Source of the DNA: Balanoglossus misakiensis
Lineage: Eukaryota > Animalia > Hemichordata
Assembly: GCA_040954595.2 (NCBI GenBank)
Contig: CM082580.2
Coordinates: 2,346,783-2,410,782 of the forward strand
Length of the DNA stretch: 64,000 bases
Direction of reading: 5' to 3'
Shown here: positions 23,661 to 56,249 of the stretch, piece by piece
Numbering within the stretch: position 1 is the stretch's first letter
How the letters are laid out: the number at the start of each line of letters is the position of its first letter
Notes under the pieces: model-generated
Seen by the model: only the letters and a program-made list of their open reading frames with translations
What the model was told of the DNA's origin: nothing
Database searches by the model: none
Translations under genes and position numbers: made by a program

Positions 23661-23730
23661 TGTTACTTCTTTATGATGTGAAGAGGGCGCTGTTACGGAG
23701 GGCGCTCTTTTTCTATTGATAAAAGTCAAA

Positions 23731-24496
23731 ATGGAGGACTTGCTGAGGAGAGCGGGGCTCATACGACTCCTCCCAAGATTTCAGGAGGAAAGAATCGATT
23801 TTACAACAGTATTGTCCTTAACCAATGAAGAATTGGCTCGATTGGGAGTTACCAAAGTAGGTGATCGTTCTAGACTGAGGGATTTATGCAGACCCCACAC
23901 ATCAAATGAGTTTTCTCGAAGTGACCAAGCTGGCGTCGCCAGCACTAGTGGCACTGCAAGTTCAAGTCACGTACAAAGGGAGCGGTCACTTTTGTTTACG
24001 CCTAATCAAAGCAGAGCACAACACAGTTACGGCCGAAGAAGTCGTGCAAAGAAATGTAAGCGGACATGGACTGGACAGTTTGTTTGTCTTGCTGATCGTA
24101 ACACTAGTAGCGTCCCATCGTCTGAAATCAAGCAGATACTAACTCGTGCTGGACTTGGACTGAAACGGCTAACTCTTGACAACGAATGTAATAGCAGAGA
24201 CTTGATGGATACTTTGATGTCTGATGCTGGATTTCCACAAATACGTGATTGTGGGGGTGTAGAACTGCTATATTGTGCTCATGCTAAGAAACTAAAGGTA
24301 ATCACATGCAGTTGGTCAGTTCCTGATTTGAAAGCTAATTTAGGGGCTCAGAGTAAGATATACATAAGACCTGTGCAGAAAAATTGTCTACTAAACCCAT
24401 CAATCCAGAGACTGCTGAAGATCCAATAACCCAGATGTGTATGGGCTGTTTAAATGAATATGATATTCGTGAATTACGTGAACACATGATGACCTG
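23731..24496 (+). pseudogene. Truncated transposon-borne ORF: SAM domain, a region typical of invertebrate G2E3-like HECT ligase N-termini, and a CxxC..HxxxC zinc finger
   Basis: SAM-like: MEDLLRRAGLIRLLPRFQEERIDFTTVLSLTNEELARLGVTKVGDRSRLRDLC. Then WTGQFVCLA...AGLGLK...FPQIRDCGGVELL...IYIRPVQ. After a frameshift near 24385: CMGCLNEYDIRELREHMMTC, cut by the next insertion. Confidence 0.65.
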
Positions 24497-24559
24497 TATG
24501 GAAAGCCATGACTGTCTTAAGTGACGTAAAATTATGTTGCCATGGGGATTCTTTATATT

Positions 24560-25140
24560 ATGATGTGCATACATTATAAGGTGATGGGCATAGGTTATAA
24601 GGTGATGGGCATAGGTTATAAGGTGATGCACATATGTTATAAAGTGATGCGCTAAGGTCATAAGGTGATGGGCATACGTTATAAGGTGATGCGTGTATGG
24701 TATGAGGTGATGGGGTTATGTTATAAAGTGATGCGCAAATGTTATAAGGTGATGGGCCAACGTTATAGGGTGATGGGCATATGTTATAGTGTGATGACCA
24801 TATGTTATAGGGTGATGGGCATACGTTATAAGGTGATGAAACATTATAAGGTGATGGGCATACATTATAGGGTGATGCACATACGTTATAATGTGATGCA
24901 CATACGTTATAAGGTGATGGGCATACGTTATAAGGTGATGCACATACGTTATAAGGTGATGCACATATGTTATAAGGTGATGCACATACGTTATAAGGTG
25001 ATGGGCATACGTTATAAGGTGATGCGCATACGTTATAAGGTGATGCACATATGTTATAAGGTGATGGGCATAGGTTATAAGGTGATGGGCATACGTTATA
25101 AGGTGATGCACATACGTTATAAGGTGATGGGCATACGTTG
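24560..25140. repeat. 21-bp minisatellite, ~28 copies
   Basis: Unit GTGATG(GG/CA)CATA(C/T)GTTATAAG; it produces the repetitive ORFs in the track. Confidence 0.95.
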
Positions 25141-25189
25141 TAAAAAATTGCAGCTGCACTTCTCATATAAAATGTAAATTTTTTGGTTT

Positions 25190-27379
25190 ACCCTCTGACC
25201 TTTGACCCTCATTGGATAATTGCGTATCTAACTGAGGCTGAACCAACAGAACAGGAACTAGTTTTTGGTGAACATGTAAGAATAATTTGACCCTCATGAA
25301 TTATGTGTGTTTCTGATTCTCGGCTACAAATATACATGGAAAGCTGCTGACCTCCATGACCTTTGACCTTAATAGTATATATATGCGCTTTACTACATAA
25401 CTATAAAACCTACTGGCTTCATACTTAGTGGGATGATTTTTTGATATGGACCAGTTATTGATCAAATATTTTGATACAAATTTTGGTGACCTTGAGATAA
25501 CCCTTGACCTATTTTCTTATACCTCAACTTCTATAGAAGATGAAGCCTTGGCATTTGGAGGGATGGAACACCTAATGGAGTCTGACACTTTACCTCATTA
25601 ATTATGTGCAGACATTATTCCAGGGTAACCAATAGGACCAGGCATTTGGTTTTTGTTGGATATGAACCAGAATGGGTTCAAAATTCTCTGACAAACTTTT
25701 GGGTGACCTTGGGTAACCCTTGATCGACTTTCCCATATCTAACCATTATGGCTAGAATCTAGGTTTTCTTGGATATGGACTAGTATATGATAAACTTGGG
25801 GTGATTCTTGACCTACATTCACACCAACTAGGCATTTGGTGGGTCCGCTTGGGCGTCACTAAGGCTTGAATTTTCAATAAGTCACATGACATGGCAGCCA
25901 TATTGGATTTTCTGTAAACCGATGATACCGTAATCGTTCTATCGGTTCGACCACTCCATTAGTTCGTCCACCCACTATTTTTCCTATAATTAATTATTTT
26001 ACAACCCCTAAAATTTCGCCTAGTGGTAAACGCGTAACTGTTTTCCCCTTGGCCTGAGCTCAAACAGCCATGAATGAATGACCCTTGTCTGACCTCAAAT
26101 CAGGCGTGAATAGTTAATTAAGGAAAGGGATCATTTTGTAACAGGGGGGTGGCTGAAAATTGAGGGGATACAAGTGGCAGTTTCTAATGAGCTTGCATGC
26201 AAAATTACCCCTCTGAAAAGAGCGATGTTTAGCACCTTGCTTAGTCAACGGTCAATTTGCCTTGTTGCTGATGGTCATCAGTAAAATGAGGAGCCCCAAA
26301 ACCTACAGGCAAAGCCTTGAGTAGTCGGAACTTACTGCAGCTGGGGCTCTGCTGAAAAAATTGAGACGCCCAGTGGAAGTGATAGTGAAACTTGTAGCAA
26401 AGTTCATGGTGATAATTGCTAGGCAACTAGGTCTTGCCATTGTCTGGCTAAAAATACATCCCTGTGCGTGAATAAATTAAAAACGTCTTTGTCCCAAGGG
26501 ACCAACTCAAAGCTTGTTCCCACATCCGGTATGCTTTTACTACATAGTATATTACGCACTGGTTTCAAAGCTGTAAGACTCACAGGCGCTTATACTAATA
26601 TAGGATGACTGTGCAAAAACAGGAAAAGTGTGGATTTTCTCGGATCTTGCATTTATTTGATGTGGAACAACACATGGGACAAGTCGGCGAAATGTGTTGT
26701 TGATTTTCAATCGCGCACCATGAAGCCTATTTGAACCTAATTTGCATAAATGTCCGAGGGGGTCGTTCTGGCACTTTGACTCATTTTTACCCCCATTGTT
26801 TCGTCTTTTTGTAAAGAATAATTATTTTTTCCTGGTCGAACCGAAGGATCGATTACGGTAAGTTAATATTTGATTGCAAGCCTGAATATTGACAGCACTC
26901 AAATTCTCTTTATGGATATGAGTCATCATATGGCCGTTATTTGTCACAATTTTTGGGAATTTTTACATGACCTTTGACCCAGTTTCTAAGAACCTAATTA
27001 TACATATGCATATGCATATGTCTTATACCTCATTTTGTTAAAGCACCCGAGTCATGACTTTTGTGCAAATGAGTATAATCACGGTCAGGACATGACAAAA
27101 TTGTGGGGTCACTTGTGACACCTGCTTCACTCATTAATTACAGTACAATTCCACGCTAACTAATAGAGCTAGAGGTTTGATTTTTGTTGGTCATGGATGA
27201 GTATGGGGTCACAATCTTTGCCCATATTTTGGGTGACCTCAGGAGACCTTTGACCTACTTTCCCATATCTTACCATGAGGACGAGAATTCTGATTTTTCT
27301 TGGACATGGACGTATTTGATAAACCTAGGGTTATCCTTGACCTATCCTTGGCCCCCTTCACACTGCTTGCAGCTTTAAT
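25190..27379 (-). mobile_element. Helentron-type element (reverse orientation) inserted in the IS3EU-like element
   Basis: The reverse complement of its right end is attaaagctgcaagcagtgtgaagggggccaagg, matching 56684 and 58177. It carries the tgacctttgacc satellite motif. Left boundary approximate. Confidence 0.6.
25928..26858. mobile_element. Tc1/mariner (pogo-type) MITE nested in the Helentron-type element
   Basis: TIRs CCGTAATCGTTCTATCGGTTCGACCA / TGGTCGAACCGAAGGATCGATTACGG, flanked by TA on both sides. Confidence 0.8.
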
Positions 27380-27892
27380 TCTGATTTTTATTTCTTCATA
27401 CCTTATATTTTTAGACCTTTTAAACGAAAATATCCACGATTTTAGACTAACATAAAATTAAAAATAAATATTTGCAATATATATAGAGGTTTTATGATCA
27501 CATAATGAAATAATCCCTGTGACACCATATAACGACATATGTACACTACAATAAAATATATGTAAATCACAATATAACATATGTGCATCATAATAAAACA
27601 AATGCGCATCAAAATAAAACTTATGCAAATCACCTTATAATGTATGCACATCACGCTATAACATATGCCCATCACCCTAAAACATATGCCCATCACCCTA
27701 TACCGTTTGCCGATCACCTTATAACGTTTGCGCATCACCTTATAACATATGCCCATCACCTTATAATGTATGTGCATCACCTTATAACGTATGCCCATCA
27801 CCTTATAACGTATTCCCATCACCTTATAACGTATGTGCATCACCTTATAACGTATGCCCATCACCTTATAACGTATGTGCATCACCTTATAA

Positions 27893-28856
27893 GTAAAGGA
27901 TAATGTACGAGTGGAGTGCAATCGTTCAGATATTGAACGACACGAGGGCCGCAGGCCCGAGTGTCGTTCAATAACTGAACGATTGCACGACACGAGTACA
28001 TTATCCAGCTTACAATACGTCGCAACATCTGTGATCATGATATATGCTAAACAACTTCTCAACCACATCAACCAATCACAAGCGTCGCAAAACACATCTG
28101 GTGTATGACTCATTTCGATTGGATACTTGTCAGCCAGGGCATTTGTCACGTGGTCATTGAGGTGCCACGTTTCCATCATCATTCGGAACTCAACCTTCGA
28201 CAGACAAACACCATGTCCGAAAGTAGCGACGAGCACGAGCTTTTCATTACCCATGGAGCACGTTCCCACACCCAAGTGAAAGCGAAGGGCGTAGCTTTTA
28301 CGATATGGACTGGATTTTCCAAGATTTTGGTAGCTTCATTGAAGAGAATGTACATAAACCATCGGTCATGGAAAGTGTCCTGCAGAAAATCAATGGTGCC
28401 TTTCTCCTGGCCTGCAGCCGCCATTGCGCACATCCTCTGTAAGTACCATTTTTCTGTCATTTTCCTCGGAACTTGTAAATTTGTAGTTGTATATTGATCA
28501 GGAATGTTCGATTGTACGTCAGCGTAGGCACTTCAGGGAAGTTTTGGTACGTCGAAAAAAATCAAGCTTTCAGGTGAATCTGTGTGTGAGGTACATGTAG
28601 AAACGAACCCCCAACCAAAGGTTGAGACCTGCAGCGCAGAGATCACGACAAAGAAAGATGGACGAACCAAGTGTGTGCACCTGGAAGCAGTTTTTCCCGC
28701 CGGAGGCAGCACCTCCTGTCAAAGCTATCTTGTTTGTTGTAGTGAATCTTATTATGCCAGGTACAGTGCAATATCCAGATATTGCACTGGTACCAGTGCA
28801 TTATCATAGATAATGTCCCAAGAGAACAAAGAGTCTGGTCACATGTAGTGTTGTAA
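27893..28856. mobile_element. Crypton-like element with a 109-bp terminal hairpin, splitting one 21-bp array unit
   Basis: Inserted between ttataa and catatgtg of an array unit, and ends ttgtaa (short direct repeat, no TIR/TSD). Hairpin at 27898-28006 with loop gggcc-gca-ggccc. A short inverted repeat links 28010 (ttacaatac) with the right end. Confidence 0.6.
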
Positions 28857-28975
28857 CATATGTGCATCACCTTATAACGTATGTGCATCACCTTATAACG
28901 TATGCACATCATTATATAAAGAATCCCCATGTCAACATAAATTTATGTCACTTAAGACAGCCACGGCTTTCCATA

Positions 28976-30574: not shown

Positions 30575-33500
30575 TCAGGGAGTGGCTGCTAGATCAGGAC
30601 AAACGTGCGACATGTAAAGCATCAACTGTTGCGTTATGACACTATCTCGCGGCATGTGTATGTTATCCTGGGCACGGTGAGACAGAGACATGTCCCAAAT
30701 ATCGACAAAGTGGAAACCCAGGCCGCCAAATATTCGCCTCACCATTCGGTTGATGTCGTGCAGCACCCAGTTGCTGCTGTGGACTGCCTGTGTTACCAAC
30801 TCGTTGTCGCGCGGGTGGGTCATCTTGATCATGACCTTGGCCCGGGGGCATTGCGACAGCAGTCGCACGGCCGCCGTTCTGCCGGCTACAAGCCTTTCTA
30901 TGTACGCCCTGGAGGACCACGCCAGAAAATGGTAATTGATGTTCATGACCATGACGGCAGAGTTGCACGATGTCTGCCTGATCTCGTCCAAGACGTCGGA
31001 TTCAAACTGCAGGTCGCTGACTTTGCTAAATATACTGTTGCTTCCCGCCCGCATGGCGTGCTCGTGTGCGTATGTCGTGGTATTTTTACCTAATGTCAAC
31101 CCCGATCTAGCGAACTTGAATTTGGTGCGCCCTGTCATCATGAAGACCAATTGGTTGTACCACTGCCTCATCGTCGAGTCGCCTAAAAACCAAAGTGTCC
31201 GGTTTTCCAAACATCGAAACATTTCCTCCTCGTCGAACTGTTTGACTTTACACGAGGAAAAGTTGTACACCATATCACTCTCCCAATAACCATCAAAGAT
31301 TGGTACAGGAAGATCTGGTCCACACAGCGGTGGATCTGGAATGGACTTCTTCGGGGATACGTCACCTTTCCCGTTTGAACCTTCGAAGGCAAATACAGAT
31401 AATATACGGTCTCACAAAGAAGATGACAAAGGGCATACGTTTACCAATCCTCCTCCTCCTTCTGTCGTACGCCGTAGATTTTAACAAACAGATTATTGAC
31501 GACCTGATGTCATATTATGATTGCAATCAGCGGACTCTCAAAATTGCGTATAGTATTGAGCGTACATGTATTAGTATTCAATGATCATACACACAAATCA
31601 AGATGGCGTCGCCAATTGTCGGTCCGAAATGTCCGGAATGCGTGTAGGCCTTCTCTCTTGGAGAAAAGAAAGGTGAAAATATATTTACCTTTTATCTGAA
31701 TTGTGATCGGGTTGGCAGCAAATGGAACCTTCATGTAGTCACTGAAACGATAGACATAACCTGTCCATAAGAAACTAGGCGAATCTTGTTGCAAATGGTT
31801 TTCCTTTTCGTATTATTCTGTTTCTAAAATTGTTTAAATGCAGATTAATTCCTATGGTGTTTTTTGAAGAATTCCAAATTATGGGAACTCATGACTTTAT
31901 TTTCCAACTAAGATAATCCAAATAAGCTTGCTGATAGGTATACAATGTCAGTGAGCAGCCATCTGTCTTTTTTTTTGTTTACGTCTAGGGTGTATGGAAA
32001 AAGAAGACATAGTGGATGCACACTATCAAAATACTAAAAGTGATATCAATATTTACAGCCTTGTATCAGTCCCTTCGATGCTTACACTGGCTCATTCATT
32101 CATTGTTTCTCACGCCAGTTTTCAAAGCGATCACTTTACCTGCTGAAAAGGTCCATCTTTTCACTTTGGTTCATCATTTCCTCGGCACGTTTGTTCAAAC
32201 CATCGACGTCTCCAAACACCGAGGAGAGATCCTGGCAGTCGAACTTCCGGGGACGCTGGCACAGAAATACTGTTTTACCGAGCGAGGCCGGGTTCCTGTA
32301 CTCACACTGGTTTTCCCATGTGCCTTCGTTAACAGTGTGGCAGAACGTGTCCTCATTTCGCTCGTTTTCCGTTTCCCGCGCATACCGCGCTTTCCAGGCG
32401 ATCCTGTCTTCTTGGCCCCTCACGTCTGTGTTTAACCAGTGAATCGCTTCCCTCGTGAAGTAGAGTACCACTGTTATATTTGCGGGGCCCGACCACCCGG
32501 CGCCAAAGTAAACGCTGTATGTCCCGTTCCCGTAGTCGAAAACTCTCCCGGCCGTTCGGCGGTGCTCCGCGTCGTTGGACATAACGCAGAAGAAAAAATC
32601 GCCCCCTCGTCCACGCCGACGGCCATTTTTGTCCCTGGCCTCGATTACGAGGTGAATCAATTCCCCTTTGGTGAAAAACTTCTTATTTCCGTCCAGATAC
32701 ATACTGTGGAGTGATGATGAGTTTGGTGAGTGTTGACGGGTTTTTCCTTATTGTGAGAGAATCATCAGTGAATTGAATATGGAGACAGTTGGTGAATATG
32801 CAAGGGTCAGACACTAAAAGGCACCCCAAAACTTGGAGCAAATGTTAAAGGCCCGTAAAAAGACATACGCAGGTAAAATAAACCCTTATCAAGACTTGTA
32901 CACGTGCAGTCAACTGGGAAAATTCGTATATCCAGCGCCAATAAAATCTTTATGCTGTTGAAGCTATAAGCATTCAATGCCCACGCTAGTAATTGTTATA
33001 AGTTCCACGAGAAAATTGGCCAGAAAATAGTACTAACAATCGTTAGTAGTTTGTATTATAATCCATAAAGGCTACAGTGGGCAGATTTGGAAATACAACT
33101 GTACAGATAGTTTTCGTCACAACAAAATACATTGTCGTATATACCAGTTTATACGCAGCGATTACACACCTGCTTGAATTGCATGACGTAAGTCCAAGGC
33201 TACCATCGCCGATGGAATATGGCCTCTCTTTGGGGGAATTAGGACGATGATGTCCAGAGCTTTCACTTGCCCACATCAATTCATCGACCACGCCTTTCCA
33301 CTCCATTCCGTATTGTGAAAAGCTTTTGTAAGGAAACAGCAAGTCTTCCATCTTACCATGGATTGCTCTCTCAACGACAGTATCGCCCTCTACATCCTTT
33401 GCCTTTGGCACGCCTGTTTGCTCGCCCCTTCCCGTGTCTTCCGCCTCTTCGGAAGGTAATATTTCGATCGTCGCCTTCTTCTGCGGCGTTGGCATTTTTG

Positions 33501-38706: not shown

Positions 38707-41700
38707 TTACTCAGACGAGACCTGAAAAGTAGAAATATGCGTAGCCTGTAGTTTTCATTTCAACACAGTGACTGTATAAAGCATGCGATAAAGGTTGTTA
38801 TATGCCATGTCAGCTCATAGACAGTCTACTGTCTATGATCAGCTTGTCAACATAGCCTGCATACGCAATACGAATAAGCGAAACTTCAGCCGTTCCGACT
38901 TTGCTACTTCAAATGCGTGTATCACCAATCACAGCCGATACCCAGAAATTGTCGCCCGGGTCCCATTCTCACCTTATTTTTTGAGATTTTGCAAGTCCAA
39001 ATGCCAATACATGTACCAATCACACCCACAGACGCGACGGCAATGATCACACCCAGCACGATAATCAAAGCCAACGAAACACCAGCCTCTGTGTTCACAA
39101 AATAAAACAAAATACACGTTAAAATAGGGTGACTGGCAACGCCATCACTATGACCAGCGATTGCTTAAAGCACGCGATAAATTTTCACAGCGTAGCATAT
39201 TATACATGGTTACTACAATGGGAAAGCAAGTTATATAGACCATGAGCCAGTAGGGGTTTACCTCCCCCCCCCCCCCCCCCCCCGGGGGGAATTTTTGAGA
39301 CAATGTTTTTCTGAAAGCCTATCATATACTGAGTAAAATTCACTTTGTTTGCCATCTGGGCACCGGGGCGTTTTCGAGTTATTGGCTTCTAAATTATATT
39401 GGGTAACGTATGTAGAAATGCCTAAAAGTGCATATAAATTGACGTAGGGGGGTAAATTAGTCTTGTAAAATACTGTCTCTCTGAATGTATACCTAGAACA
39501 ACAGGGAAGTATTTGGTATCAAAAGAAAGCTTAATAAACAAGCTTTCCATTAATTACAAAATAAAAGTGATATGACAAATCATGACATCAAAGTGACGTC
39601 ATAAGTCAAAATACCCTTACGAAAATGGTGTTCTGTTCACCTATAAATGTGAGGTTTTGCAAAACACGTCTCTGAGCAATTGTACTGATGAAAACTGTGA
39701 TGTGTTTGGTATCAACAGAAAGCTGATTGAGTAAATTATCTAATTATTGCAAAAAATTGATATAATAATCAATTACGTCATCATTACGTCATACTTCCAA
39801 GTACCCTTACCAATTAGTGACTATGATGACAGGAGATAGGTGCCTTTAAATTAAAAAAATTGGTAAGGAAGGTTTGTGAAGTCCATTCTATGTAAAAAAT
39901 GGTGCTGATTCCAAAAAAGTCAGTCTTATTGACCCCACCCAAGACAAAATTGCCATTTTGGCACTTTTTAACCCAAAAAGATCATTCTTAGAAAACACTA
40001 AAAACACACTGTTTTCATCACATTCGAAGATCTGATGACATATGATATGCCTATTCTATGTAAAATTTGGTTGATATTACGACAAAAGCAGTCTGACTGA
40101 CCCCAAACGAGACAGAATTGCCTTTTTGACCATTTTTGCCCAAAAACGGCATTTTTAGACAAAACTTAAAACACACTCTTCTCTTCATATTGATTGATTT
40201 GATGATATATGGAAAGTCAATTCTATGTGTAAAATGGTGACTATAAAACATAAAGCAGTCTTTTTGACCCCAATCAATACAAAAATGCCATTTTTGGCCA
40301 CATTTTTGAGGTCAATAAAGGTCATTTTTACAAAAAAACTAAAAACAAACTGTTTTCTTCATATTCAGAGATCTGATTATGTATGAAAAGTCCATTCTAT
40401 GTATAAAAAAAAATCTGATTGACCCCATTCTAGTCAAAATTGCGTTTTTGGCAATTTATTGCCTAAAAAGACCTACTTAAGACAAATTTATCATTTTAAA
40501 CATTTTCTAGAGAAAAAAATGTTTGCATTTGGAGATAGCCCAAATTGAACTCATAATGATGATGAAACAGCTTCGAGAGTAAAAGAAGTTATACGAATTG
40601 AACCAAAGTCGCATCGATGAATCTAAACACGTCGCCCAGGACCAAGCATTGAACATGATACAGGCGACAAAAAGACAGGCACTGCACATGGCAAAGTCCC
40701 AAATATTCACTTAGAGCATCTCCAAATTGAAACGTCAAGGAATTTAAGAGTTTTTATTATATTTATTAGGTTTAAACCCACATTTTCCCGTTGTGTGCTA
40801 GTTCAGGGGCCAGTTTTAGCTCTATTGAGTATTTAGCATCGTGGGATTGCACCCCTGTCCAATCAAAATGATGGAGGTATCATGATATAATATAATTTCT
40901 GATTTTGTATTCAGAACGAAGAGGATAAATGTCAACAATCTATCCGGAGCTGGTATAGATGTACATAAAAAAATTATACCATGTATAAACGACTTATAGT
41001 ATACAGTGTGAATACATGGATCGTCTCGTTTTATTGTTGAGTTCCATTTTAGGCTAAATGTGCCAAATTGTGGCAACTCTGCCTTTCAATATCATCAATT
41101 CAACTGATATCATATGGTATGACATTTTAAATATGCAAATATAACATCAAAACTCAAAAGGCAAAAAACACAATATTGAGTGGGGTCTTAATAAGACTGT
41201 TGTGTTGGTATCAGCATATTTTTTGCAAAAAATGGACTTTCCATTCATAATCAAACATTTAAATACGAAGAAAACAGCTTGTTTTCATTTTTTCTTGAAA
41301 TGAACTTTTTGACCAAAAATGGCCAAAATGACAATTTTGTAGGGCTGAAAAGAATTTTTTTTTTGGAATCGGCTCCCTTTCAACAAAAATGGACCTTCTC
41401 CGTACATCATAAGATCTCTGAAAATAAAGAAAGAAGTTTCAAACAGTTACCTTATTTGAGCAAAGTGGCCAAAATGGCATTTTTTCCCTCTGTGGAGTCA
41501 GTAAGAGTGCTTTTTTGGAAAAATCGCTACTTTTAAGATAGAATGGACTTTTATTTATTATTAGATCACCAAAGGGGAAAAATAGCATGTTTTTAGTATT
41601 TTCTAAAAATGACGCTTTTTGGGCAAAAAGTATTTTCATCTTCATTGAGATCAATAAGATTGCTTTTTCTAGAGTCAACACCAATTTTTCAATAAATGGA

Positions 41701-44700
41701 CTTTTCATACATGATCAAATTTCCAAATATAAAGAAAACGTTTGCTTATTTCTTAAAATGGCCTTTTTGGGCAAAAACTTGCCAAAAAACGCACTTTAAT
41801 CTTGAGTGGCGCCAATAAACATACTTTTTTGAATACCTACCAAATTTAACACAGGGTGGGTATATAATACATTATCAGATCTCCGAAAGTGAAGAAAATA
41901 TATAAGTTTTGAGTGTTTTCTAAAAATGACATTTTTGGGGCAAATAGTGGCAAAAATGGCACATTTGCCTTGAGTGGGGGTCAATAAGGCTGCTATTTCT
42001 GGAATCAGAACTATTTTACATAGCATAAACTTTTCATATATCACATGATCTCTTAATATGAAGAAAACAGTTTGTTTTTAGTTTTTTTGTAAAAATGACC
42101 TTTTTTGACCTCAAAAATATGGCCAAAAATGGCATTTTGGTATTGATTGGGGTCAAAAAGACTGCTTTATGTTTTATAGTCACCATTTTACACATAGAAT
42201 TGACTTTCCATATATCATCAAATCAATCAATATGAAGAGAAGAGTGTGTTTTAAGTTTTGTCTAAAAATGCCGTTTTTGGGCAAAAAATGGTCAAAAAGG
42301 CAATTCTGTCTCATTTGGGGTCAGTCAGACTGCTTTTTTCGTAATATCAACTAAATTTTACATAGAATAGGCATATCATATGTCATCAGATCTTCGAATG
42401 TGATGAAAACAGTGTGTTTTTAGTGTTTTCTAAAAATGACCTTTTTGGGGTTAAAAAGTGCCAAAATGGCAATTTTGTCTTGGGTGGGGTCAATAAGACT
42501 GACTTTTTTGGAATCAGCACCATTTTTTTTACATAGAATGGACTTCACAAACCTTCCTTACCAATTTTTTTTATTTAAAGGCACCTATCTCCTAGGGTAA
42601 TAACTTGTCATCATAGTCACTAATTGGTAAGGGTACTTGGAAGTATGACGTAATGATGACGTAATTGATTATTATATCAATTTTTCGCAATAATTAGATA
42701 CTTTACTCCATCAGCTTTCTGTTGATACCAAACACATCACAGTTTTCATCAGTACAATTGCTCAGAAACGTGTTTTGCAAAACCTCACATTTATAGGTGA
42801 ACAGAACACCATTTTCGTAAGGGTATTTTGACTTATGACGTCACTTTGATGTCATGATTTGTCATATCACTTTTATTTTGTAATTAATGGAAAGCTTGTT
42901 TATTAAGCTTTCTTTTGATACCAAATACTTCCCTGTTGTTCTAGGTATACATTCAGAGAGACAGTATTTTACAAGACTAATTTACCCCCCTACGTCAATT
43001 TATATGCACTTTTAGGCATTTCTACATACGTTACCCAATATAATTTAGAAGCCAATAACTCGAAAACGCCCCGGTGCCCAGATGGCAAACAAAGTGAATT
43101 TTACTCAGTATATGATAGGCTTTCAGAAAAACATTGTCTCAAAAATTCCCCCCGGGGGGGGGGGGGGGGGGGAGGTAAACCCCTACTGGCTCATGGTCTA
43201 TATAACTTGCTTTCCCATTGTAGTAACCATGTATAATATGCTACGCTGTGAAAATTTATCGCGTGCTTTAAGCAATCGCTGGTCATAGTGATGGCGTTGC
43301 CAGTCACCCTATTTTAACGTGTATTTTGTTTTATTTTGTGAACACAGAGGCTGGTGTTTCGTTGGCTTTGATTATCGTGCTGGGTGTGATCATTGCCGTC
43401 GCGTCTGTGGGTGTGATTGGTACATGTATTGGCATTTGGACTTGCAAAATCTCAAAAAATAAGGTGAGAATGGGACCCGGGGGGGAGGTAAACCCCTACT
43501 GGCTCATGGTCTAATAAGGGAACTCGAGCATGACGTGCTTATGATCAGGGGACTCCACATGCAAGCAACCTAACTTTCACGCTCTGCCTGAAATCACTTA
43601 CTGTCACGCATGCTCCAACTGTGTTGATCTTTGTAAGGCAGGCACTGCAGTGTAGCATCAGTCGGGTGATGATCGCCATCAGAAAAACAGTGTCCATTAA
43701 TTTCGCAAGCAGTTTCCTAGAAAAAATGGAGACCATGTTTACATACCATAGCAAATAGTAAATTCTGAACTTCTGCTGAACACCAAAGCCCATGTATAAA
43801 GTATCAGGCGTACGTAACACCGATGAGTGAGCAATTTTATTGATGGCTCATTTTAAATTTGTCGATGCGAATCCAGAAAATAATTTTGTTTCAAATTCAT
43901 GGTCCTTTTTTCTGTATGTTGACACTCATTTCGAAACATTTCACATTGACAGAAAATATTATGTTCACTAAGTTTCAGAAAAAAATTATGCATTGAATGT
44001 ATTTATGACGCTTTGATTGTAAAGGAAACCTCATTGTCTATGCGCAGTGCAAATGCACATGGGCTATAGACACAACTTCACAGAGTGCATATGGGAAAAC
44101 GGTATTTTCCTTATTTCTTCGATTTCCCTACCTTCAGTTCACACAATCCTGCGCTGTCACATGACAAACACTTGGAGTCGTACACGGTCAGCAGCATCCC
44201 TTTGCTTGCCATGGCGCCGGCGTTGTTGCTGACATGAACACGGACAGTTGCCGAAGTCACGCCGTCTGTTTCATCAGGGTTCCCAGGCTCTACGATGGGT
44301 AGCCGCGGTCGGCAGTAAACCTCCCGAAAGCTGACGAAGAAGGTGTCAGCTTCAGCCGTGAGTTGACTGGTGGCCATCCAGCCTTCATCGTCTTCGTACT
44401 GGTGAATAGTGAAAGAGAACGATATTGATGTGATCGATGACGAAATCAGACAGAAGACAATATAAACAGAGAGTAGACAAGTATCGAGCGCGTGACAGTG
44501 GTTCAAGATGACCTCATCAATTTGTTGTAATTTACAAACCTAGCATGATTATGATTATTGGACCCGATATGACGTCACACTAACAACGTAATTATCCGGA
44601 TTCCTTACCTTTACGTGCTGGTAATGACACATGAGCAAGTCACTGTTCAGGAAGTTGTCGCCGACGAGAGAGATTGACTGACAGAAGTCATGACGTATAT

Positions 44701-47700
44701 CGCACAGACCGTGCTGTTCCGAGCCTTCAATGAACCACACGTCGGGTGGCATTGATAAATCGACAGAGCAATCGAGTCCGCCATATCCTGAAGACATAGA
44801 GGTTATTAACAGCTAGTGGTGAGAATTTTGAACGTACAACTCAGATCGACGAATATAAATGACTTGTTCTTTGATTTACAAGTGGATATTACCGGTATCG
44901 AAGTGAAGATTTGAGGCCACTACTAAACGAATTAACAAAATGTAAATACAACTTCAACCGTAATAGTTTTGTCGTTATATATTTAAGAGCTACATTTTGT
45001 CTCGGCAAAATGTCCGGATGAGCAGGTTATAATTAAACGTTTCCTCAGGCGTCGCGGTAAACGCAAGACGCCACAATATGCAAATGTATATTTCAGTTTG
45101 AAAAACCATACCGGACGTACTATGGCATGGCATATACACATAAAATATTGGTATGTTTCACGATACGATCCAAAATGGCGGCTAACGATGACGTGTGTCA
45201 ATATAGTTGCCCGTTGGGCGACGTCTTGATAGATATGGTGTTTCGATGCCATATATGGCAGATTAATACCTTCGTTACAATAGCAAACTCCATTGGTGCA
45301 GTTACCACGGTAACTACACTTCCCCGGGCAAATCGAAATTCTCAGAAACATTGGCGGTGAAAAGCTTCCAGTATCTAAAACAAAAAAAACAAAACAAAAA
45401 CTAAAACAGTTAGCCGACAAACTAATGTTTTTGCATTATTGTCGGGCAGTTTATGCTTAAAATCCTTAGCTGTCACTTTCGGACACAACAGAACATATTT
45501 AGAAGGAACAACATTCCGTGGTGTGGTCGTGATACTGGAATATCACAACGCCAACTGCAAAGACAGCCACATCTTTAACCCTTTCACCACAATGGTTTGG
45601 TCCGAATCCATTGTTTTCTTGTAAACGTGGACCTCTATAGAGGTAACTGGGGCTGAACGGGTTAATGATGTCTACAGAATGAACAATGATACTGGCTGGG
45701 GTTGACGTTAATTCTTACCATTAGAATACAGCGACACATTTTTCAAGGCGACATCTTCACAATGGTCAATCATTTCATCAACAGCCACTAACACCAGATC
45801 AAAACCATCGATTAGCTGAATAAAAGACATAATTGTATTACTGTACATGCAGAAATATTGAAAGTTCCAAGTTTATAATAATAATCCCTGGTAACTGCAT
45901 ACCGTTCGAATTAGTCTTTTTGCATTAATTTGGTGCGGACTTCTACTTTCAATAAAAAAAACGTTTATTCGTATTTTTATTTTAAACAACATAGTGGTGA
46001 ATGTTATTTCAAAGAGATGTACATAATGTTATTACGGTCACTACTTGTGAATCCAAGAGATTGCTTTTGAACTTGACACTCCAGAACTCGGAGACCAACA
46101 ATATCACTTCTGTCTTTAATTTCGATTTGAAGACGCCATCTTAATAATCAATGTTCAAATTCCCCCCCCCCCCCCGTATGCATGATGCATTGTAGTACAC
46201 TCACACCAATGTCTTCAACGCAGCCGTCGACTCCTCGGAACAAATCGACACCGGGAACATCGGCACAGTGCTCGGCGATCGGTGACTCCAAGATCTCAGC
46301 TCTACACCGATCGTCCGCTTGTTCCAAAGTTATACCGCTTGCTGTCGGCCACGTTACTTCGTCGAACTCGCTGCGTCTCTTCCTAATAACACAAGAAATC
46401 GTGGGCTTGAAATGCAAATAACTGTACGAATTCCGATACACAGACCACGTGAGAGGATGTCATGTTTGGAAGATTCGTACGTTTGTTTGCGTGAAAAACA
46501 CAATACAGTCTACAATAATTTCGCTAGATATTTGCACCATTAGAAGCAATCGCTTAAGATGGGTCCCCGGGATCTTTTTGCCCGTTGCTATGGGCCTTTG
46601 CAGGACATTACACCCCGATTTGGACTAAGCCGTTTTCAGAGTCTAACAAGGGGCTGGTAACTAGTTGAAAATCTGCACGATTGTGAGCGCGCGCCCCCTG
46701 ACGCCATTGATATGCAAATTAGCTAGGTCAAATTTCAAAAGCCTAAGGCTTTTTATTCTGTGACCTCAAAAACGAACTTGATACGTATTCATTAGTTGCT
46801 TGAACCAGGGAAGATCGTGACGGATTTTGTTTTCGAATATTATCGTTGTATCCTACGATTTCAGCATACCCGTACCTGACCTGAAAAAGTCATCGATTTT
46901 GGGTGTTTTTGGACGAACTCTTCCACCGGTATCGCTTCTTAGCACGACGAAAACCGAAAAAACGATCCGTCACACTGTGCGGAAGTGCGTTCTCAACAAG
47001 CAGGTCAAATTTGACTGGCGTACGTGGCCTATGAAAAAAGCCTTAGGGATTTTCGTGAACGGTACAAAATCTCTGTGTACAAAACATTGGATTTTTAGCG
47101 TACGTTCGATCCAGTTACTGTGGTTACAGGACGCGCACGCTATCGCTGACCGCTGCTTTGCCGTATTAGCGTGGCGGCCTATGGCCGGGCGGTAGCTGCC
47201 GTAAACATACTCGGACAGGGGGTGTGCACACAGTCGTGTGTATTTTTAACTAGTTACAAGCCCCTTGTCGGACGTTCATAACGGTTTCGATCAAAATTGA
47301 GTGTAGTGTCCTATAAAGGCCCATAGAAACGAGCAAAAAGATACAGGGGACCCATCTTAACCTTTTATACAAAAGCTTCGATTTGTCGTATATGTCTTCC
47401 GTCCATGGGTTACCAGTGTACGAATCTTATTGAATGAGACAAGGTCAAATCTGAAACGATTTTAGAGGCAATATCAAGTGCATGATATGATCATAATTGT
47501 TGATCACGAACTTCACAACCTACCTCCCCAAGGCGTTGTCAACGCTCTCTGCACCAAATTTACCGGCCTCTGGAAGGTGTGCGCGGGAACCTAATTTCGA
47601 ACGGCTGTCGTCAACCTGGCCAGTTAAGTCCGTTCCAGAGAGTTGTCGACCAATAGGGCGCCTGGCTCTGCGGCCTTCGTGGCACTCACCACCGTCTTGG

Positions 47701-50700
47701 CGACGGTCGGCGTGTATGAAGCATTCGCAGCTGATGCCGCCGCTCGGACGATCCCCGTCTGGAGTCGACGTCGGTGTGTCGGGCAACTTGTCAAATAAAC
47801 TCTCGCCAGCTTCAATCCTGAAGAGGAAAAGATTGATTCAGTCATTTGCAATATTCAAATGTGCGTACATTTCTAAAGTTTTCATTCGACTCAAAGATCA
47901 ACGACAACTCACATCCAAGTGGAGATGAACTCATTCGGCCGCTTTCCGGTGTAGTCCAACCGTGAGTTGTCACTCAGCGTGTATTCATTTCGGATGTCGC
48001 CATCGAACACACCACAAAGGCCCACGGTACCCTCGGCATCGTCGCTTGGCACCGTCAGTTCAATATCCATTCCCCAACCGCCGACTTTGGCAACAACTCT
48101 ACTCCCCGACGGCATGGATATCTGTTCAAAGTCGGAAAGAAAAAAAGGAAATCGAATTTGGTACACATAATAGATAAAAATAGCCAAATGTTACAGCTAA
48201 TGTCCCTTTAATATGATCGGAATTCTTCGGGTTGAGTGGAAAGACTGCTGTGATAATTATTGGTTCATACACTTACGGTGAATCGTTTACCGCTCTTTCC
48301 TACGTTGATGGATACCCCGGATGTAAAGTTCCCCTCGCTGAATTTGACCACCTTTGGCGCTGTTTTCTGCCACTCCCCGTGGCACATCGTCACGCCGACG
48401 ACATCGTCATTTTCTCGCACAACCACCCCGCAGTTGCAGGCAACGCGCCAACACTTCCAGGTTCTGGTGTGAACCTATTAACAGGGAAGATCCAGAGTGA
48501 ATTGGACCAGGGATCGGGTATGAGTGCACGGGCTTTGTGAGCGGATGGAGACGGGGCAATATGTGGAGAGCAATCGATCTGCTCCTCACAGCAAGTGAAT
48601 CGTTAACGAGGTACTAGTACACCGTTAACTGTTCAAGTCGGATGAAGGAGGATCAATCTGATTAAAATCAGATGTAGAGTTAGGTGATAGTTATGGTCGT
48701 TCTACACACTCTCTCTCTCTCTTGGCTTTTCTCGGGCGCACGCGCCCTTTCCGAACAGAACAGCAAAGAATCAGCCAGCGTAAGCCAGCGCCTTACTCTA
48801 CATCTGATTTTAATCAGATATGTCTAAGATGTCGATATCATCGATAGCAAAATACATTAAACTCTTACCTCGAAGTCTCTATGCAGGCTTTTGTGGAACA
48901 CAAAATCACCAACCCTATAGTTGTCGAATTTTCTGCGGAGAAGGGAGCATTTTAATTTCAGTGAATGTTACCCTATAACATGTTTATAGTCACATTCTGA
49001 CGATAAGCTGACCAGTGACTAGCTGATCTGTCCCGCCAAATATTGCATATAGATAAGAGATAGACGTGCGTTGTTTAGTAACCAGGCAACTCTGAGGTTG
49101 CCATAGACTTGCTCCAAGTCTATGGGCTTCATTATTTCATAATAAATACATTTAAACACTTGTTCCGAATTTCTCTATGTACCGTGTGTGAAGTAAAAGT
49201 CACCGAGTGTGGGCGTGTATGTACAAATGTACGTCAAGGGAACGCGTAGGTAACCGAAACCGTGAGCTCAGTCCAAAATTTGAAACCAAACTCACTACCA
49301 GAAACACGCAAACAGTTTTGAAATTATTTATTAAGACAAAAAAACACCGCAAACACAAAAGAGTATTGGGATTCAAAAATCACCAAACGACTAGTGGGCT
49401 AGTCTAAGGTTGCCATTAATGTCTATACATACCGGCCATCGTAGGTGATGTAATGAGGGTCTCCTCGAGATGTGCACCGTCCGGTGTCAATATCCTTCAC
49501 CCGAACCTGTCAATTAAAAAAACCCCACTTCATACCTTTGCCGAGCTTTTCCAAGTAAGCGTATCCATGTACACTACATAAGCCGAGACAGGGCGAAAAA
49601 ATTGTCGTTGAATGTATAATAAAACATAATTTTGACCAGAACGGGACCCTATACGAGTTATGCTGACGTGTTATTAACACTCGGGGACATTTCATATGGA
49701 ACTACATGTACGTTGGATCAGTTAGTAACAGCGTGATATGAAATGATTTGAGACTCACACCAATGCTTTCTCTGTAGCCATCCTTAACTCTAGCAGAGCA
49801 TTCATCGGACGCCGGTTGCGCATGCACTCTCACAAACTGATCTCCGTCGTTTTGGAAATCCCTCACTGCATCGAACTTCACTTTCTGCAGTGTGTTGTAC
49901 GATTCATGTCTGATATTAACTGCGCATGTGCTTAACAGAATCTCTGGACGATCAAGGGAGGCTGAAGTAGAAAAAAAAACAAGTTTTGATGATTGTCTTG
50001 AATTCAAGTGGATGGATGGATTGATAGATAGATGCATGAAAAAAGGATGGACAGACTGTCAATACTCACTCACTCACTCACTCACTCACTCACTCACTCG
50101 GTCACTCGCTCACTCACTCACTCACCCAACCACCCACCCACTCACTCACTCACTCACTCACTCACTCACTCACTCACTCACTCACTCACTCACTCACCCA
50201 ACCACCCACCCACCCACCCACCCACCCACCCACCCACTCACTCACTCACTCACTCACTCACTCACTCACTCACTCACTCACTCACTCACTCACTCACTCA
50301 CCCAACCACCCACCCATCCACCCACCCACCCACCCACTCACTCACTCACTCACTCACTCGGTCACTCGCTCACTCACTCACTCACCCAACCACCCGCCCA
50401 CCCACCCACCCACCCACTCACTCACTCACTCACTCACTCACTCGGTCACTCGCTCACTCACTCACTCACCCAACCACCCACCCACCCACCCACCCACCCA
50501 TCCACCCACCCACTCACTCACTCACTCACTCACTCAGTCACTCGCTCACTCACTCACTCACCCAACCACTCACCCACCCACCCAACCACCCACCCACCCA
50601 CCCACCCACCCATCCACCCACCCACCCATCCACCCACCCACTCACTCACTCACTCACTCACTCAGTCACTCGCTCACTCACTCACTCACCCAACCACCCA

Positions 50701-53700
50701 CCCACCCACCCACCCACCCATCCACCCACCCACTCACTCACTCACTCACTCACTCAGTCACTCGCTCACTCACTCACCCACCCAACCACCCACCCACCCA
50801 CCCACCCACCCACCCACCCACCCACCCACCCATCCACCCACCCACTCACTCACTCACTCACTCACTCAGTCACTCGCTCACTCACTCACTCACCCAACCA
50901 CCCGCCCACCCACCCACCCACTCACTCACTCACTCACTCACTCGGTCACTCGCTCACTCACTCACTCACCCAACCACCCACCCACCCACCCACCCACCCA
51001 TCCACCCACCCACTCACTCACTCACTCACTCACTCAGTCACTCGCTCACTCACTCACTCACCCAACCACTCACCCAATCACCCAACCACCCACCCACCCA
51101 CCCACCCACCCATCCACCCAACCACTCACTCACTCACTCACTCACTCACTCACTCACGACCGAACGAACGAACGAACGAACGAACGAACGAACGAACGAA
51201 CGAACGACAAGGCGATAAAAAGACACAGTGAAGTCTAGCTGTGGGATAAATCAAACTCACCCCTCTCTGCTTTTAGTTCAATTTTACACGACATTGGTAC
51301 GGTTGCCCAAAGAGCCACTTCGTGCCCAGGTCCTGACAGGTCTTCTCGCGTGATTATCGAGTTCGGCGAGACCTTAAATGCAAATACATCACCGCGACGA
51401 TTTATCTTGCAATAAGATGTTAGGAAATCCGTGTTTCATATTTGTGCATGTAAATATATGCGTTTTCATCGTTATTGACCCAAACGTATTTGAAAATATG
51501 AATACATTTTCCACCGAATCAGGTTGATCATTGGCTGTCAAATGCACTTACCTTGATACCAACAAACACATCGTTGCTGGAAAACGGTGGACTGAGGACA
51601 TCGGAATCTAGAAAGCGGGCGATGACTTCACACCGAACCTTTGAAGAAGAAATAAAATGTCGCAAATTTCATCCAACAATCATGATATGTTGATATATTG
51701 ACAACTTTATTGCTATTTCGCGTTTCCTTTGGTTTGCGATTGTTATGTACCACTCGTCTCGTGCCCCGCCAAACCTATACGAGCAAATGGGTTTAAGACT
51801 TTGATTTTCGGACCGTGTATACCTCACGTCACGTGCCACAAGTGTTACTTCCACGAACAATCAACAAACAAACAAACAACGCAACTTCGACACTCACTGT
51901 GCAGCCAATCACGAATTCATCTTCCCACAAGATGTCTTTTGGGGAATCCGGAGATACCTCCTTCGCCTTGACCAGAGTGTCGTCCATCAGCCAGTTGATT
52001 TCATACTCCGCCTCCTGTGATTCGCCGCCTCGGAACTGACACTCCAAGTAACCCTGATGTCTTTCCTCGCTAAATTTTGGCGTCAACATTGGCATTTGGT
52101 CGAGATTTGGAAACTCGACTTTGAGGAAGACATAGAAATTGATCACCAATATAAGAATGTACTCGTCACGTTACAACCATTTGTAGATTATGAGGTGAAG
52201 CCATTGGACGCATAGCAGTTACATGTTTGGATAGGCCTAATCATTAATAATCATGTGGAGTGTCCTTATGACTTGAACAAGAACTCCTCCATGTACGTTG
52301 GCTGTTTTACATCACGGATGTAGATCGAAAGGACACTGTTATCGCCCATTAAGGGTTATTTTTTATACTTTTATGCGACCCCATATAAGTTAAAACTGAT
52401 TAAAGTGGCCTCATTCTTATTAGTGGCTTCGTGGTTTTATTTGAGAGGTTATTTCTCGGAAGACAATTTACACTCGCTCGATCAAATTTCTCAGTCACTT
52501 CAAGAGTTCGCCAGGGACATAGCCATTTTATATCAAACACTGTACAGGAAATAATTTGCAAGAATAAAAGTTAATCTCATCATCGTACAAATGTGATTAT
52601 GCTCTACGTAAAAGCCTGGTTTCCCCGTGATTTTATAGTTTTGGGAACAGTGGACATGCAATCTCATAGAGCGAAATGCCAAGAAAACACGAAAAAACGT
52701 GACATAAATATTTGTGTAGGTTACCTGAGCAACCTGGCTGAAATCCACCACTGGGGGAGCCATGTCCTGGTGGGCACGGTTCCTTGCCACCTACGAGGAG
52801 GGAGAGGGAAAGAGAGAGGGAGACAGAGGGGAGGAAGAGAGAGATTTGTGTAAATATTAAATACCTGCAATTAAGTCGTTAATCAAGATACTACATGTAT
52901 AATTCATTTAACTTGAAGGTCGTAAAGTACGGTACCTGCGCAGTAGGCAGCAGGGCAGATATCAAGTGGTTCCAACTTGTAAACGTAGAACTCTCCACAG
53001 TTCTTCACAATGACGTCGGCACTTGTATCGCAGCAGTTGGTGCCACCTAAGAAGATAGAGGTTTGATTCAGCAAAAAAATGAAATGTCAGACCTGAGTCC
53101 GAAAGTGATGAAGCTCCTTGACTTAACGTTGCATAACTCATCATCTATATCTGCGGAGAAGCTCAAAAGTTGGAGTACCTTCGTTTATGCACACAGTCAT
53201 CGCCTGGCATTCGTTCGCTGGCGGTAGTTCACCATCGAGCCACCCCGGAAATTGGGTTCCACAGTGGAATTCTGGGACACACGATGTCGGCATTTGACCC
53301 CCGGCCTCGCTCGTGAACCTGTACCAATTCGGGTCCAACCCGTCGTCGCATATGTAGTCCTGTTGTGACATCGTGGCGTCCAAACTGTAGGCCGAGCTCC
53401 GATACTTGTTGTCGATCGGCAAGTACTGCTCGCACGGTTCAACGATCAGATCTACAGGGCGGTCAAAGAGTGGCACAGTTTCATTTTCACATTTCTAGCC
53501 CAAGAAGCCAATCAACTAAATAAATTACATCAATGGTTCTGTACGAATACATAGCGTTGTCAACACACACTAGTGCGATTAATCTTAAATCTCATAACTC
53601 ATAATAAATAGTCAATAGTTCCTGGTGCTTAATTCGACTTCCCGACTAAATTGTATTCACATCTGCCAATGCAGGTTTCGTTTTGTGACATTTCCCTTTA

Positions 53701-56249
53701 CAAGTTGAATAACGTCGGATACTTACTCGGTGATTTCACAAACACCGCGAAGACATCAGCTCTGCTTGAGTTTTCTGTGTCAATACATGAAAACAATAAC
53801 AATTGATTCGTATGAATGGCGCCTGCATTATGCTACCATTATCGAGAGAAAGACTGGCCATAGTACAATGCCTGAGTGATTTTGGACAATCTTGACACAA
53901 TGGAAGATTAAGTTAATACTGCTAGTACATTGACTATCTTTTTTGCTTTTGAAATTTACGTTTACAACATTTGAAATGTTTTATCGTTCTCTACAAATGC
54001 ATAGACCACTTTCATGACCAATATATGACCTTTCATAATTGTACTTCAATTGGTATGAGGCTGTCAAGATTCAACAATTTGACAAAAGAAACGTTCAGTA
54101 CATAACTTATGTAAGGTCATTTATGGGACAAGAATATTGCCTATTATCTTTTCCTTGAAGACGAATCTTATCCGAGGTACATTTGTAATTCAATAAAAAC
54201 TTGTCCATGAAGAATTGTAGCAGCAACAAATATCTTGGTGATCGTCACATTTCAGCATATTTTGATCACATTGTAATCAAACTGATGTGCATGTGTAAAT
54301 CATAGTGCTCCGTCTTTTAGGCTTTGTCCACTTTGAAGGAAACCCCCGAAGTGCGCAAGCGCGTCAAAGTTCTGAAATGAATTCTGTTTCGATTATACTA
54401 GCCCATATTAACAGAACAATTTATTTTATATTGTTAATAGCTTCTAACACAATTAGAAATAATTTGTGATTATAAGATATTAACAAGAAAAACGCAATGC
54501 AATGAAACTGCACTGATATTTCATTATTTGTGCAAAGTGCGCTTACTTGTCTTTTTAGTACAATATGAGAATTGCATGTTTTCCCCAAAATACTGAAAGA
54601 TTGTAAATTTTCAATCGAATGTTGAAAAGATGGTCAAGATCTTATCATCATCAAAGTAGTTCATTGTCTGTGACTGACCTGACCCCCAAACTGCATAAGT
54701 TTCCAGTGTTGAAAATGTAAAATGATTTATTTTCAAGTTCTTCGGATTGTCCCACTCGCACGGCGACCTTTCCTCTCCCGTTCCGACAATCAACCATCCC
54801 GTGTCAGTTTGACAGTTATCGTACATGTAGCTCTTGTTAATGAAAAAACTCCTTCCAACCTTTCGGTGGCTGAGTAATGAAGTATCAAGATAAAAAGTTA
54901 TTTGTTTAAAGAGAGGTGAACTTCCCACTTCTTTTTTGTAATGTCCCGTAATTTCTGGAAAGTAATGGAGCCAGTCCAGTTAAAAAAAACACGATATTTT
55001 TAAGACACCTCGGCTATCTTTCGTGAACATACGGTAGCTATACCGGAATCACTCGTCCGCGACGCATGCATACACACTCCTTCGAAATACGTGTGAATCA
55101 TATACATAAAAATGTGTAAGGATAAAAAACTAAAATATATGACCGGGTGTTTGTTCAACAATACAAAACAATGATACATCTATTCAATAACCTTTGACTC
55201 ACAATTTTTCCAAGATGAGAGAGAGGGGGAGAGGGAGGCACGCAGGCAGGGAGAGAGGGGGAGGGAGAGAGAGGGAGGGAGGGAGGAAGAGAGAGAGAGA
55301 GAGAGTCCAAGCTTGATATATTCTACATTGGACGTACAAACAATAGTAGCAGTTATGCAAATACGCCCAGCCTGGCGTGAAGTGACATCTATCACAGAAT
55401 GGTCTCTAACACATCACGCGGACGAAATAAAGCCCAGCGCCATTTCCCATGATTCAAAATACAGTAACCTCTAGAGAGGAACATCCGGCAATATTTTACC
55501 CAGTTTTTGTATTTTAAAAAATCGCACTGGTTATACTTGACGAAAAAGGGTTGTCCTGAATACATGAAGCCAGCGTTAGCATTTATGTGAAAATCATCTG
55601 GATTGAACATCTTCAATACACCTTTTAGCGGCAGTTTGTCCAGCGCTGCCAAAGACAGAGCACTACAACACACTTATTGTACACGTCAGTCTGTTAATCA
55701 TGGTACGATCCAATGCGGCTGTTTCATTTGATCTGAACTCCCCTCCCCCGGGTGGGGTTGTTCAGGCAACAGCACACCGATTCTTTCACGGACTTCAAAT
55801 TAGCTTTCTGGGTCTCTCCCCTGTTTATTGTCTCAGGGACGATATTTTGCTGGTGTAGGCTTGTTGGTTTTTGGCATTTTGCACAGAGTGAAATAGACCA
55901 ACACCAATCAATCATTTCTTGTGGGGAATTCCCGATTTAAACAGCCTATCAACATGCAAACGCCTGTTGCCATGTGTCATTTATGGGGCTGTCATGAGCC
56001 ACAACGTATCAAAGAACCGCACTGCACTTTGGGATGATTAAGTGTTGGCAATCCGAGTAGAAAGCTCACTGACCTGATTCCCAAACGACTGCAGTGTTAA
56101 GTGTTGAATAGAGGAAGCGACATCCAGGTAAACTGTCATAATTACAATGTGATTTCGTACGTCCGGTTGATATCAACAACCACCCGTTGTCTGCCTCACA
56201 ACCGTCGTATCCACTTTGAATGTAAAATCTCCTCCCAACGTGGCTGTCC
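38707..56249 (-). CDS. VWDE-like: VWDE-like type I membrane protein (UMOD/GP2 Cys8 domain, VWD, EGF, TM); 5' end not found in the window
   Basis: Exons 5'->3': 56249-56074 or 54869-54679, 53774-53727, 53451-53179, 53046-52936, 52790-52725, 52118-51898, 51638-51552, 51372-51261, 49961-49759, 49506-49433, 48932-48869, 48474-48277, 48121-47913, 47817-47524, 46382-46205, 45815-45719, 45374-45270, 44787-44609, 44398-44132, 43716-43602, 39088-38973, 38721-38707. All GT-AG and in phase from 54869 onward. Motifs: WYRF..GGQMPTSC..CGTQFPGWL (Cys8); CTSRGDPHYITYDG and GLCGVFDG (VWD); [28 protein letters not shown] (EGF); LALIIVLGVIIAVASVGVIGTCIGIW (TM). Confidence 0.9.
39236..43513. mobile_element. 4.3-kb non-autonomous foldback/Academ-like element with ~1.1-kb TIRs, containing an inverted copy of flanking host DNA
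   Basis: Left terminus TAGACCATGAGCCAGTAGGGGTTTACCT at 39236; its reverse complement ends at both 43200 and 43513. TSD 'ata' at 39233-39235 and 43514-43516. Arms are 39236-~40365 and ~42055-43200, with internal ~120-bp subrepeats. Confidence 0.88.
43201..43481 (+). repeat. Inverted duplicate of 38955-39235, including the whole TM exon (43348-43463) with both splice sites
   Basis: Reverse complement of the left flank; ORF 43326-43514 (+) repeats the peptide of 38922-39110 (-). Confidence 0.93.
45579..45661. mobile_element. Tiny piggyBac-like MITE (83 bp)
   Basis: TTAA|CCCTTTCACCAC ... GGGGCTGAACGGG|TTAA. Confidence 0.55.
46558..47356. mobile_element. TTAA-flanked MITE with ~115-bp imperfect TIRs (Kolobok-type)
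   Basis: TTAA|GATGGGTCCCCGGGATCTTTTTGCCCG ... CGAGCAAAAAGATACAGGGGACCCATC|TTAA. Confidence 0.85.
48657..48819. repeat. Short inverted-repeat element with self-complementary ends
   Basis: atctgattaaaatcagatgtagagt at 48657 is mirrored by actctacatctgattttaatcagat ending at 48819. Confidence 0.7.
50064..51206. repeat. 1.1-kb compound tetranucleotide microsatellite (CACT/CACC/CATC, then GAAC) in a VWDE-like intron
   Basis: Read directly; it accounts for the THSL/THPP ORFs. Confidence 0.97.

Follow-up and report, generated by a model that had tools for sequence, protein, structure and literature searches.

Analysis of a 64,000-nt stretch of the genome of the hemichordate Balanoglossus misakiensis (GenBank assembly GCA_040954595.2, contig CM082580.2, positions 2,346,783 to 2,410,782; the whole of this stretch is referred to below as the window) revealed, in an intron of a gene encoding a von Willebrand factor domain (VWDE)-like protein, a DNA transposon bordered at one end by an inverted copy of the neighbouring exon, which encodes the membrane anchor of the protein. 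We interpret this arrangement as the scar of a very recent template switch at a transposon insertion that is itself polymorphic, creating a predicted constant loss-of-anchor allele that would yield mostly anchor-less protein, and assign to this interpretation, drawn from sequence comparison and folding models, a probability of about 0.55. The features on which it is built are as follows, in window coordinates.

38707..53451, minus strand: host gene model, 20 exons, 993 amino acids (aa), with D8C, Ig_VWDE, VWD, EGF-like and transmembrane (TM) segments; 5′ end unmodelled
43602..43716, minus strand: upstream coding exon, 115 nt, ending in phase 1
38973..39088, minus strand: TM exon, 116 nt, phase 1 to 0
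38707..38721, minus strand: coding part of the last exon, with the normal stop and the skip-frame stop
43200-39236: transposon, 3,965 bp, starting with TAG and ending with CTA, upstream of the TM exon
42014..43200, minus strand: 5′ terminal inverted arm; outer ~434 nt equal to the other arm except for one C-run base, inner part ~97-98% identical
39236..40406, minus strand: 3′ terminal inverted arm
40407..42013, no strand assigned: element interior, diverged ~168-bp repeats
43514..43516, minus strand: 5′ target-site duplication (TSD), 3 nt, in agreement with the empty-site joint
39233..39235, minus strand: 3′ TSD, 3 nt
43479..43513, minus strand: stub of the original 5′ end of the element, 35 nt, stopping in a C-run (C7 versus C19/C20 in full ends)
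43201..43481, plus strand: exact inverted copy of 38955-39235, 281 nt, comprising acceptor region, TM exon and donor
43476..43481, minus strand: junction microhomology, 3 nt identical, or 6 nt should the stub have continued into the G-run

Separating the 5′ target copy from the full arm are 313 extra nt, composed of the 35-nt stub and the 281-nt inverted flank. Positions 43481-43201 are the exact reverse complement of 38955-39235, with zero substitutions in 281 nt; they take in the 116-nt exon (39088-38973) with its donor, 147 nt ahead of the acceptor and 18 nt of the following intron. Copy and source lie ~4 kb apart in the same transcript. Self-comparison of the window extends the inverted match to 38955-40420 versus 42003-43481 (1,483 columns, 96.9%); a match of this kind, 1.4 kb at 97%, cannot reasonably be put down to chance. 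An earlier note on this DNA had described an antisense copy of the TM exon, of both its splice sites and of its upstream intron, continuous with long complementary arms, and the exact copy and the longer inverted match bear this description out. The 35-nt stub and a step in identity inside the arms are new relative to that note. The copy starts at a C3G3 hexamer (38955) that is the sole match in 2 kb of the 3′ flank. An independent second insertion was rejected, since the inner element end is bordered by inverted, not direct, target sequence.

Read evidence was available as contigs from five sequencing runs (X1-X5), and contig building drops rare forms. Runs X1, X2 and X5 come from one DNA sample (S1); the X5 contigs covered repeats only. 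For X3 and X4 the share was 0.07, with X3 giving only short or low-depth pieces and X4 no contigs. Sample S1 looks heterozygous. One of its haplotypes equals the window at 43904-43911 and 45456-45537, so S1 may be the source individual of the assembly and hence provide no independent support. Contig depths were too uneven for counting copies of the duplicated flank and were not used for that purpose.

The transposon has terminal inverted arms of ~1.17 kb each (43200-42014 and 39236-40406), and its outermost ends are flanked by direct 3-nt target copies (43516-43514 and 39235-39233). One X2 contig joins 43204 to 43514, with three letters fitting both sides, and thus represents an empty-site allele, in which the intron would measure 232 nt as against 4,513 nt here. 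Two further X2 contigs, one per flank, enter the element at its exact ends by 24 and 26 nt, overlaps that fall below the 31-letter bridging rule used for junctions. Summed depth, which is not a copy number, reached ~4,000-33,000 over the element and ~50-1,100 on most of the unique flank. Dispersed copies are indicated by many contigs, by ~100-fold summed depth on the arm in X1, and by element ends joined to other flanks; no second copy was found in the 64-kb window. The target duplication, the empty-site allele and the high summed depth support the previous supposition that the arms belong to a transposon. The whole element contains no stop-to-stop frame longer than 113 aa, and an autonomous element was rejected because a long open reading frame (ORF) is absent. 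The element is a dispersed non-autonomous DNA transposon (class II, with terminal inverted repeats, TIRs), and its insertion is polymorphic in S1.

Assignment of the element to AcademX is a lead only. It resembles non-autonomous transposons of that group in its 3-bp target duplication and long arms, and its TAG...CTA ends may agree with the terminal motif of AcademX; it contains no transposase by which to compare it. In PMC10045372, AcademX elements are given 3- or 4-bp TSDs, a range that includes the 3-bp duplication found here. Duplications of 3 bp are made by other superfamilies as well.

The arms bear on the age of the copy, and within them a sharp step in identity occurs at 39670/42767. 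There are 0 substitutions in 715 nt (38955-39669; one difference in C-run length) versus 14 in the next 706 (Fisher p=5e-5), and in the arm portion alone 0 substitutions in 434 nt (p=0.0015). Set against an X1 allele of this flank, the window shows 6 changed letters and 6 gap positions over 258 nt; as the copy is substitution-free, it would be younger than the allelic divergence. Base 42846, located within the tract of identical arms, differs from the contigs of the family, which lends weak support to copying of one arm onto the other.

These data make it likely that the 313-nt insert arose by a very recent fold-back template switch. In the proposed mechanism, a new strand copying through the element would fold back on itself via the 1.17-kb arms, recopy at least the outer ~434 nt of the far arm together with 281 nt of flank, and then return to the first template, 35 nt from the element end, at a 3-6-nt match in the C/G run. 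Two-hop template switching that homogenises inverted arms is established (PMC8604942), and TIR elements are known to take up nearby DNA, with microhomology at the breakpoints (PMC8277862); inverted variants that combine one repeat with one microhomology junction have also been described (bioRxiv 10.1101/2023.09.19.558550).

The host gene was modelled over exons from 53451 to 38721, with AG acceptors in all 20 modelled exons, GT donors in the 19 internal ones and a frame open for 993 aa. Pfam matches on single exons were obtained for D8C_UMOD, Ig_VWDE, VWD and an EGF model, of which VWD alone passed the curated cut-off. A word-index homolog search with one exon gave no match; a HMMER search with one exon as query returned 16 proteins. 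Ten of these hits were looked up, all being named VWDE-like proteins of Ptychodera flava, Glandiceps talaboti and Branchiostoma, and the closest homolog is a P. flava VWDE-like protein (60% identity over 918 columns). The D8C, Ig_VWDE, VWD and EGF-like modules and the full-length similarity place the gene product among hemichordate and amphioxus VWDE-like proteins.

The TM exon contains the best 19-residue hydrophobic window of the gene (Kyte-Doolittle 3.09). C-terminal tails were surveyed in 12 homologs of at least 200 aa, 4 short fragments out of the 16 hits having been dropped. In 8 of the 12 a hydrophobic tail adjoins the shared C-terminal module, in one it lies further on, and none is present in the remaining 3, whose models may be in error. 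Because 8 of the 12 long homologs carry the tail beside the shared module, a membrane anchor is, as far as these sequences tell, the usual state. On the gene model, a transcript spliced from 43602 (phase 1) directly to 38721 would encode three new residues, Ser-Leu-Val, before a stop, for a total of 953 aa. The start of the terminal exon at 38721 was taken from the sequence model, and the normal stop lies in the same exon. Read-through from the 43602 exon into the intron meets a stop within two codons.

In a minimum-energy fold of 43720-38700 the copy pairs with every base of the exon (116/116), of the acceptor region (42/42) and of the donor (11/11), while the upstream donor and the last acceptor are free of the copy. 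The predicted stem therefore covers the exon and both splice sites, as the earlier note had proposed, and it shows the stable pairing expected in structure-driven exon skipping. The duplex has a predicted energy of -546 kcal/mol; folded by itself, the native stretch reaches -79. When the copy is left out, a local fold nevertheless pairs 80/116 exon bases, so the count of paired bases by itself says little; what differs is the energy gap and the pairing partner.

The copy would be transcribed ~4 kb before the exon. Since copy and 5′ arm come first, the arms could pair and the duplex could zip through acceptor, exon and donor as the exon emerges. From the end of the arm duplex, 147 nt ahead of the acceptor, pairing runs on mismatch-free through the exon, so that zipping would need no new nucleation. 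The predicted outcome is constant and allele-specific, namely skipping, intron retention or intronic polyadenylation, each of which would remove only the anchor and tail. About 1.17 kb of stem would form in the plain-insertion allele too, hence only the masking of the exon would be specific to the extra copy, and editing or dicing of the 1.17-kb arm duplex would be expected of a plain insertion as well.

Several observations weigh against the loss-of-anchor interpretation. The switch may have run in either direction, and on the same strand or on its sister. The junction between stub and copy occurs in no contig of X1, X2, X4 or X5, from which rare forms may have been dropped. One X2 contig runs through 43481 into the native intron, and X2 depth at 43458-43473 is that of the native-intron contig alone, the other three junctions being present. 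The fold predicts an equilibrium state and takes no account of spliceosome assembly during transcription, and distant stems were reportedly less effective in cells than in vitro in work by Eperon in 1988. Finally, neither the 5′ end nor a signal peptide of the gene was located; a secreted form would require a signal peptide too. Named relatives have hydrophobic N-termini.

The missing junction bears on the view that the 313-nt insert and the homogenised arm are an artefact of library preparation or assembly, i.e. a fold-back chimera formed on the long stem, and that the true haplotype is a plain insertion. If S1 is the source individual, the absent junction points to an artefact; if it is not, the allele is merely absent there. 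Zero substitutions suit an artefact as well as a new mutation, X2 has the empty site and both element-flank junctions without the new one, and S1, with one haplotype like the window, is possibly the source. Yet an artefact would need two switches, a return at microhomology and correct continuation on both sides. Moreover, X1 has no junction contigs, not even for the empty site; it is thus uninformative on the new junction and indicates that contigs beside the element do get lost. Fold-back reads are rare in genomic long-read sets. In PMC12870357 they make up ~0.55-0.6% of nanopore genomic reads and are virtually absent from the one HiFi genomic set tested. On balance we consider an artefact rather unlikely.

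A real rearrangement could also be nearly neutral, with the exon recognised during transcription, or the stem opened by editing or helicases, and the protein remaining anchored. Folding and spliceosome assembly compete in cells, some 4 kb separate the two copies, and neither the reading frame nor the splice sites are damaged. The mismatch-free passage of the arm duplex through the exon, which would spare a new nucleation step, argues the other way, and we hold near-neutrality to be a minority possibility.

Another rival reading, which overlaps with the loss-of-anchor interpretation, is that the rearranged allele is mainly knocked down or truncated, through intronic polyadenylation, through intron retention with editing and nuclear retention, or through small RNAs from the 1.4-kb duplex. 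The sense strand of the intron carries ten poly(A)-type hexamers, the first of them at 43335 inside the copy, although in AT-rich DNA such hexamers may arise by chance. Intron read-through would stop two codons in. Most of the effects named would be expected from the plain insertion as well. We regard this outcome as improbable.

The earlier note had gone further and suggested a possible hairpin switch between a membrane-bound and a secreted protein, a proposal weighed here in the sense of a switch that evolved and is regulated. Skipping of the 116-nt exon (43602>38721) does give a clean product that ends at a stop in the last exon and lacks nothing but anchor and tail, as had been claimed, and 3 of the 12 long homolog models, possibly through model errors, lack a hydrophobic tail. 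However, the Ser-Leu-Val-stop outcome follows from exon phase alone, the copy is substitution-free, an empty allele exists, the junction is in no contig of the one usable sample examined, and the perfect 281-bp duplex has no evident alternative state. Nothing was found that points to regulation or selection. The earlier interpretation is thus supported in its transposon arms, predicted masking and anchor loss on skipping, and lacks support in its switch, which we judge very improbable; at most the structure is a young loss-of-anchor allele.

Comparable cases are known from other systems. Antirrhinum niv-525 and maize Mu killer are reportedly transposon-associated inverted duplications that give hairpin transcripts and act by silencing, whereas the predicted target here is the splicing of one anchor exon. 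A literature search, with most subscription journals outside its reach, found no paper on an inverted exon copy causing skipping in such a geometry.

Single-copy Pack-TIRs (Tan et al. 2021, PMC8277862) are likewise TIR elements with nearby host DNA, including an exon, captured after insertion and with microhomology; they form by gap filling or template switching. In the window, too, host DNA is enclosed by the element on both sides and its source is nearby, and the breakpoint microhomology is 3 nt exact and 6 nt inferred, unique in 2 kb. In contrast to Pack-TIRs, the captured piece is the element's own 3′ flank in inverted orientation, its breakpoint lies 35 nt from the terminus where theirs skew inward, one arm has been overwritten, and the copy is in the same transcript as its source.

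The two hops, the homogenised arms, and the combination of one homology-guided with one microhomology junction recall Ripley-type arm template switching (PMC8604942) and inverted copy-number variants (bioRxiv 10.1101/2023.09.19.558550). Unlike either, the present case involves a 1.17-kb arm and a 281-nt overshoot into unique flank, and falls between the few-base yeast and the kb-Mb human cases. Exon skipping by loop-out between inverted Alu elements (bioRxiv 10.1101/2025.03.07.642063) also relies on transposon-derived intronic complementarity predicted to skip an exon. There the exon is looped; here the exon sits within the stem together with its splice sites, all of them base-paired with the antisense copy, and both transposon arms are upstream of the exon.

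Several other features were observed in and near the VWDE-like gene. Two similar probable upstream exons (~54680-54900 and 56070-56240, minus strand) had no match in seven homologs tried, which suggests a variable N-terminal module. At 44381-44602, X1 and X2 contigs skip 220 nt, with 30 letters on the short side; this skip, which would delete the acceptor of exon 44398-44132, may reflect another allele, a paralog or a false joint. An intron of the gene harbours an ~800-bp element (46558-47356) with short inverted ends and TTAA on both sides, which we take to be Kolobok-like. Also intronic are a fragment of a very abundant repeat (45573-45665; summed depth up to 48,000 in X1 and 124,000 in X2) and a 1.2-kb array (50060-51240) whose 4- and 8-base units are strongly skewed between the strands.

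Elsewhere in the window, a 1,054-aa frame free of interruptions (59523-62687, plus strand), encoding endonuclease and reverse transcriptase domains, marks a young non-long terminal repeat (non-LTR) retrotransposon. LTR-retrotransposon-like pol pieces with an integrase zinc finger match (20590-23780, minus strand) adjoin an array of 42-bp units ~97% alike, in which the frame is kept open. A SAM-domain ORF (23677-24429, plus strand) is followed by 21-bp tandem arrays in opposite orientation (24458-25237 and 27493-27912), and the region 23677-28951 is possibly another composite element. An NXPE/neurexophilin-like gene (30575-32747, minus strand) and sulfatase exons (6698-7255, plus strand) were also distinguished.

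The host gene belongs to an expanded gene family of unknown function, and the allele described here is one young haplotype, for which an artefact keeps an appreciable probability. More tentatively, as a possibility clearly short of even odds, long-armed DNA transposons may prime fold-back synthesis in which the neighbouring exon is written, as a perfect antisense copy, into its own upstream intron, producing in one step a secreted allele with the exon copy held inside a still-movable element. If the structure is real, the stub, the microhomology and the conversion boundary form an unusually legible record of the repair event. If the three alleles (empty, plain-insertion and fold-back) are true, they would constitute a natural series on exon masking by a 1.4-kb stem. 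If real and expressed, the structure would be a natural built-in antisense block of one exon, derived from a single template-switch event at a transposon, and, if real, a route by which long terminal repeats could alter the location of a protein with its coding sequence untouched.

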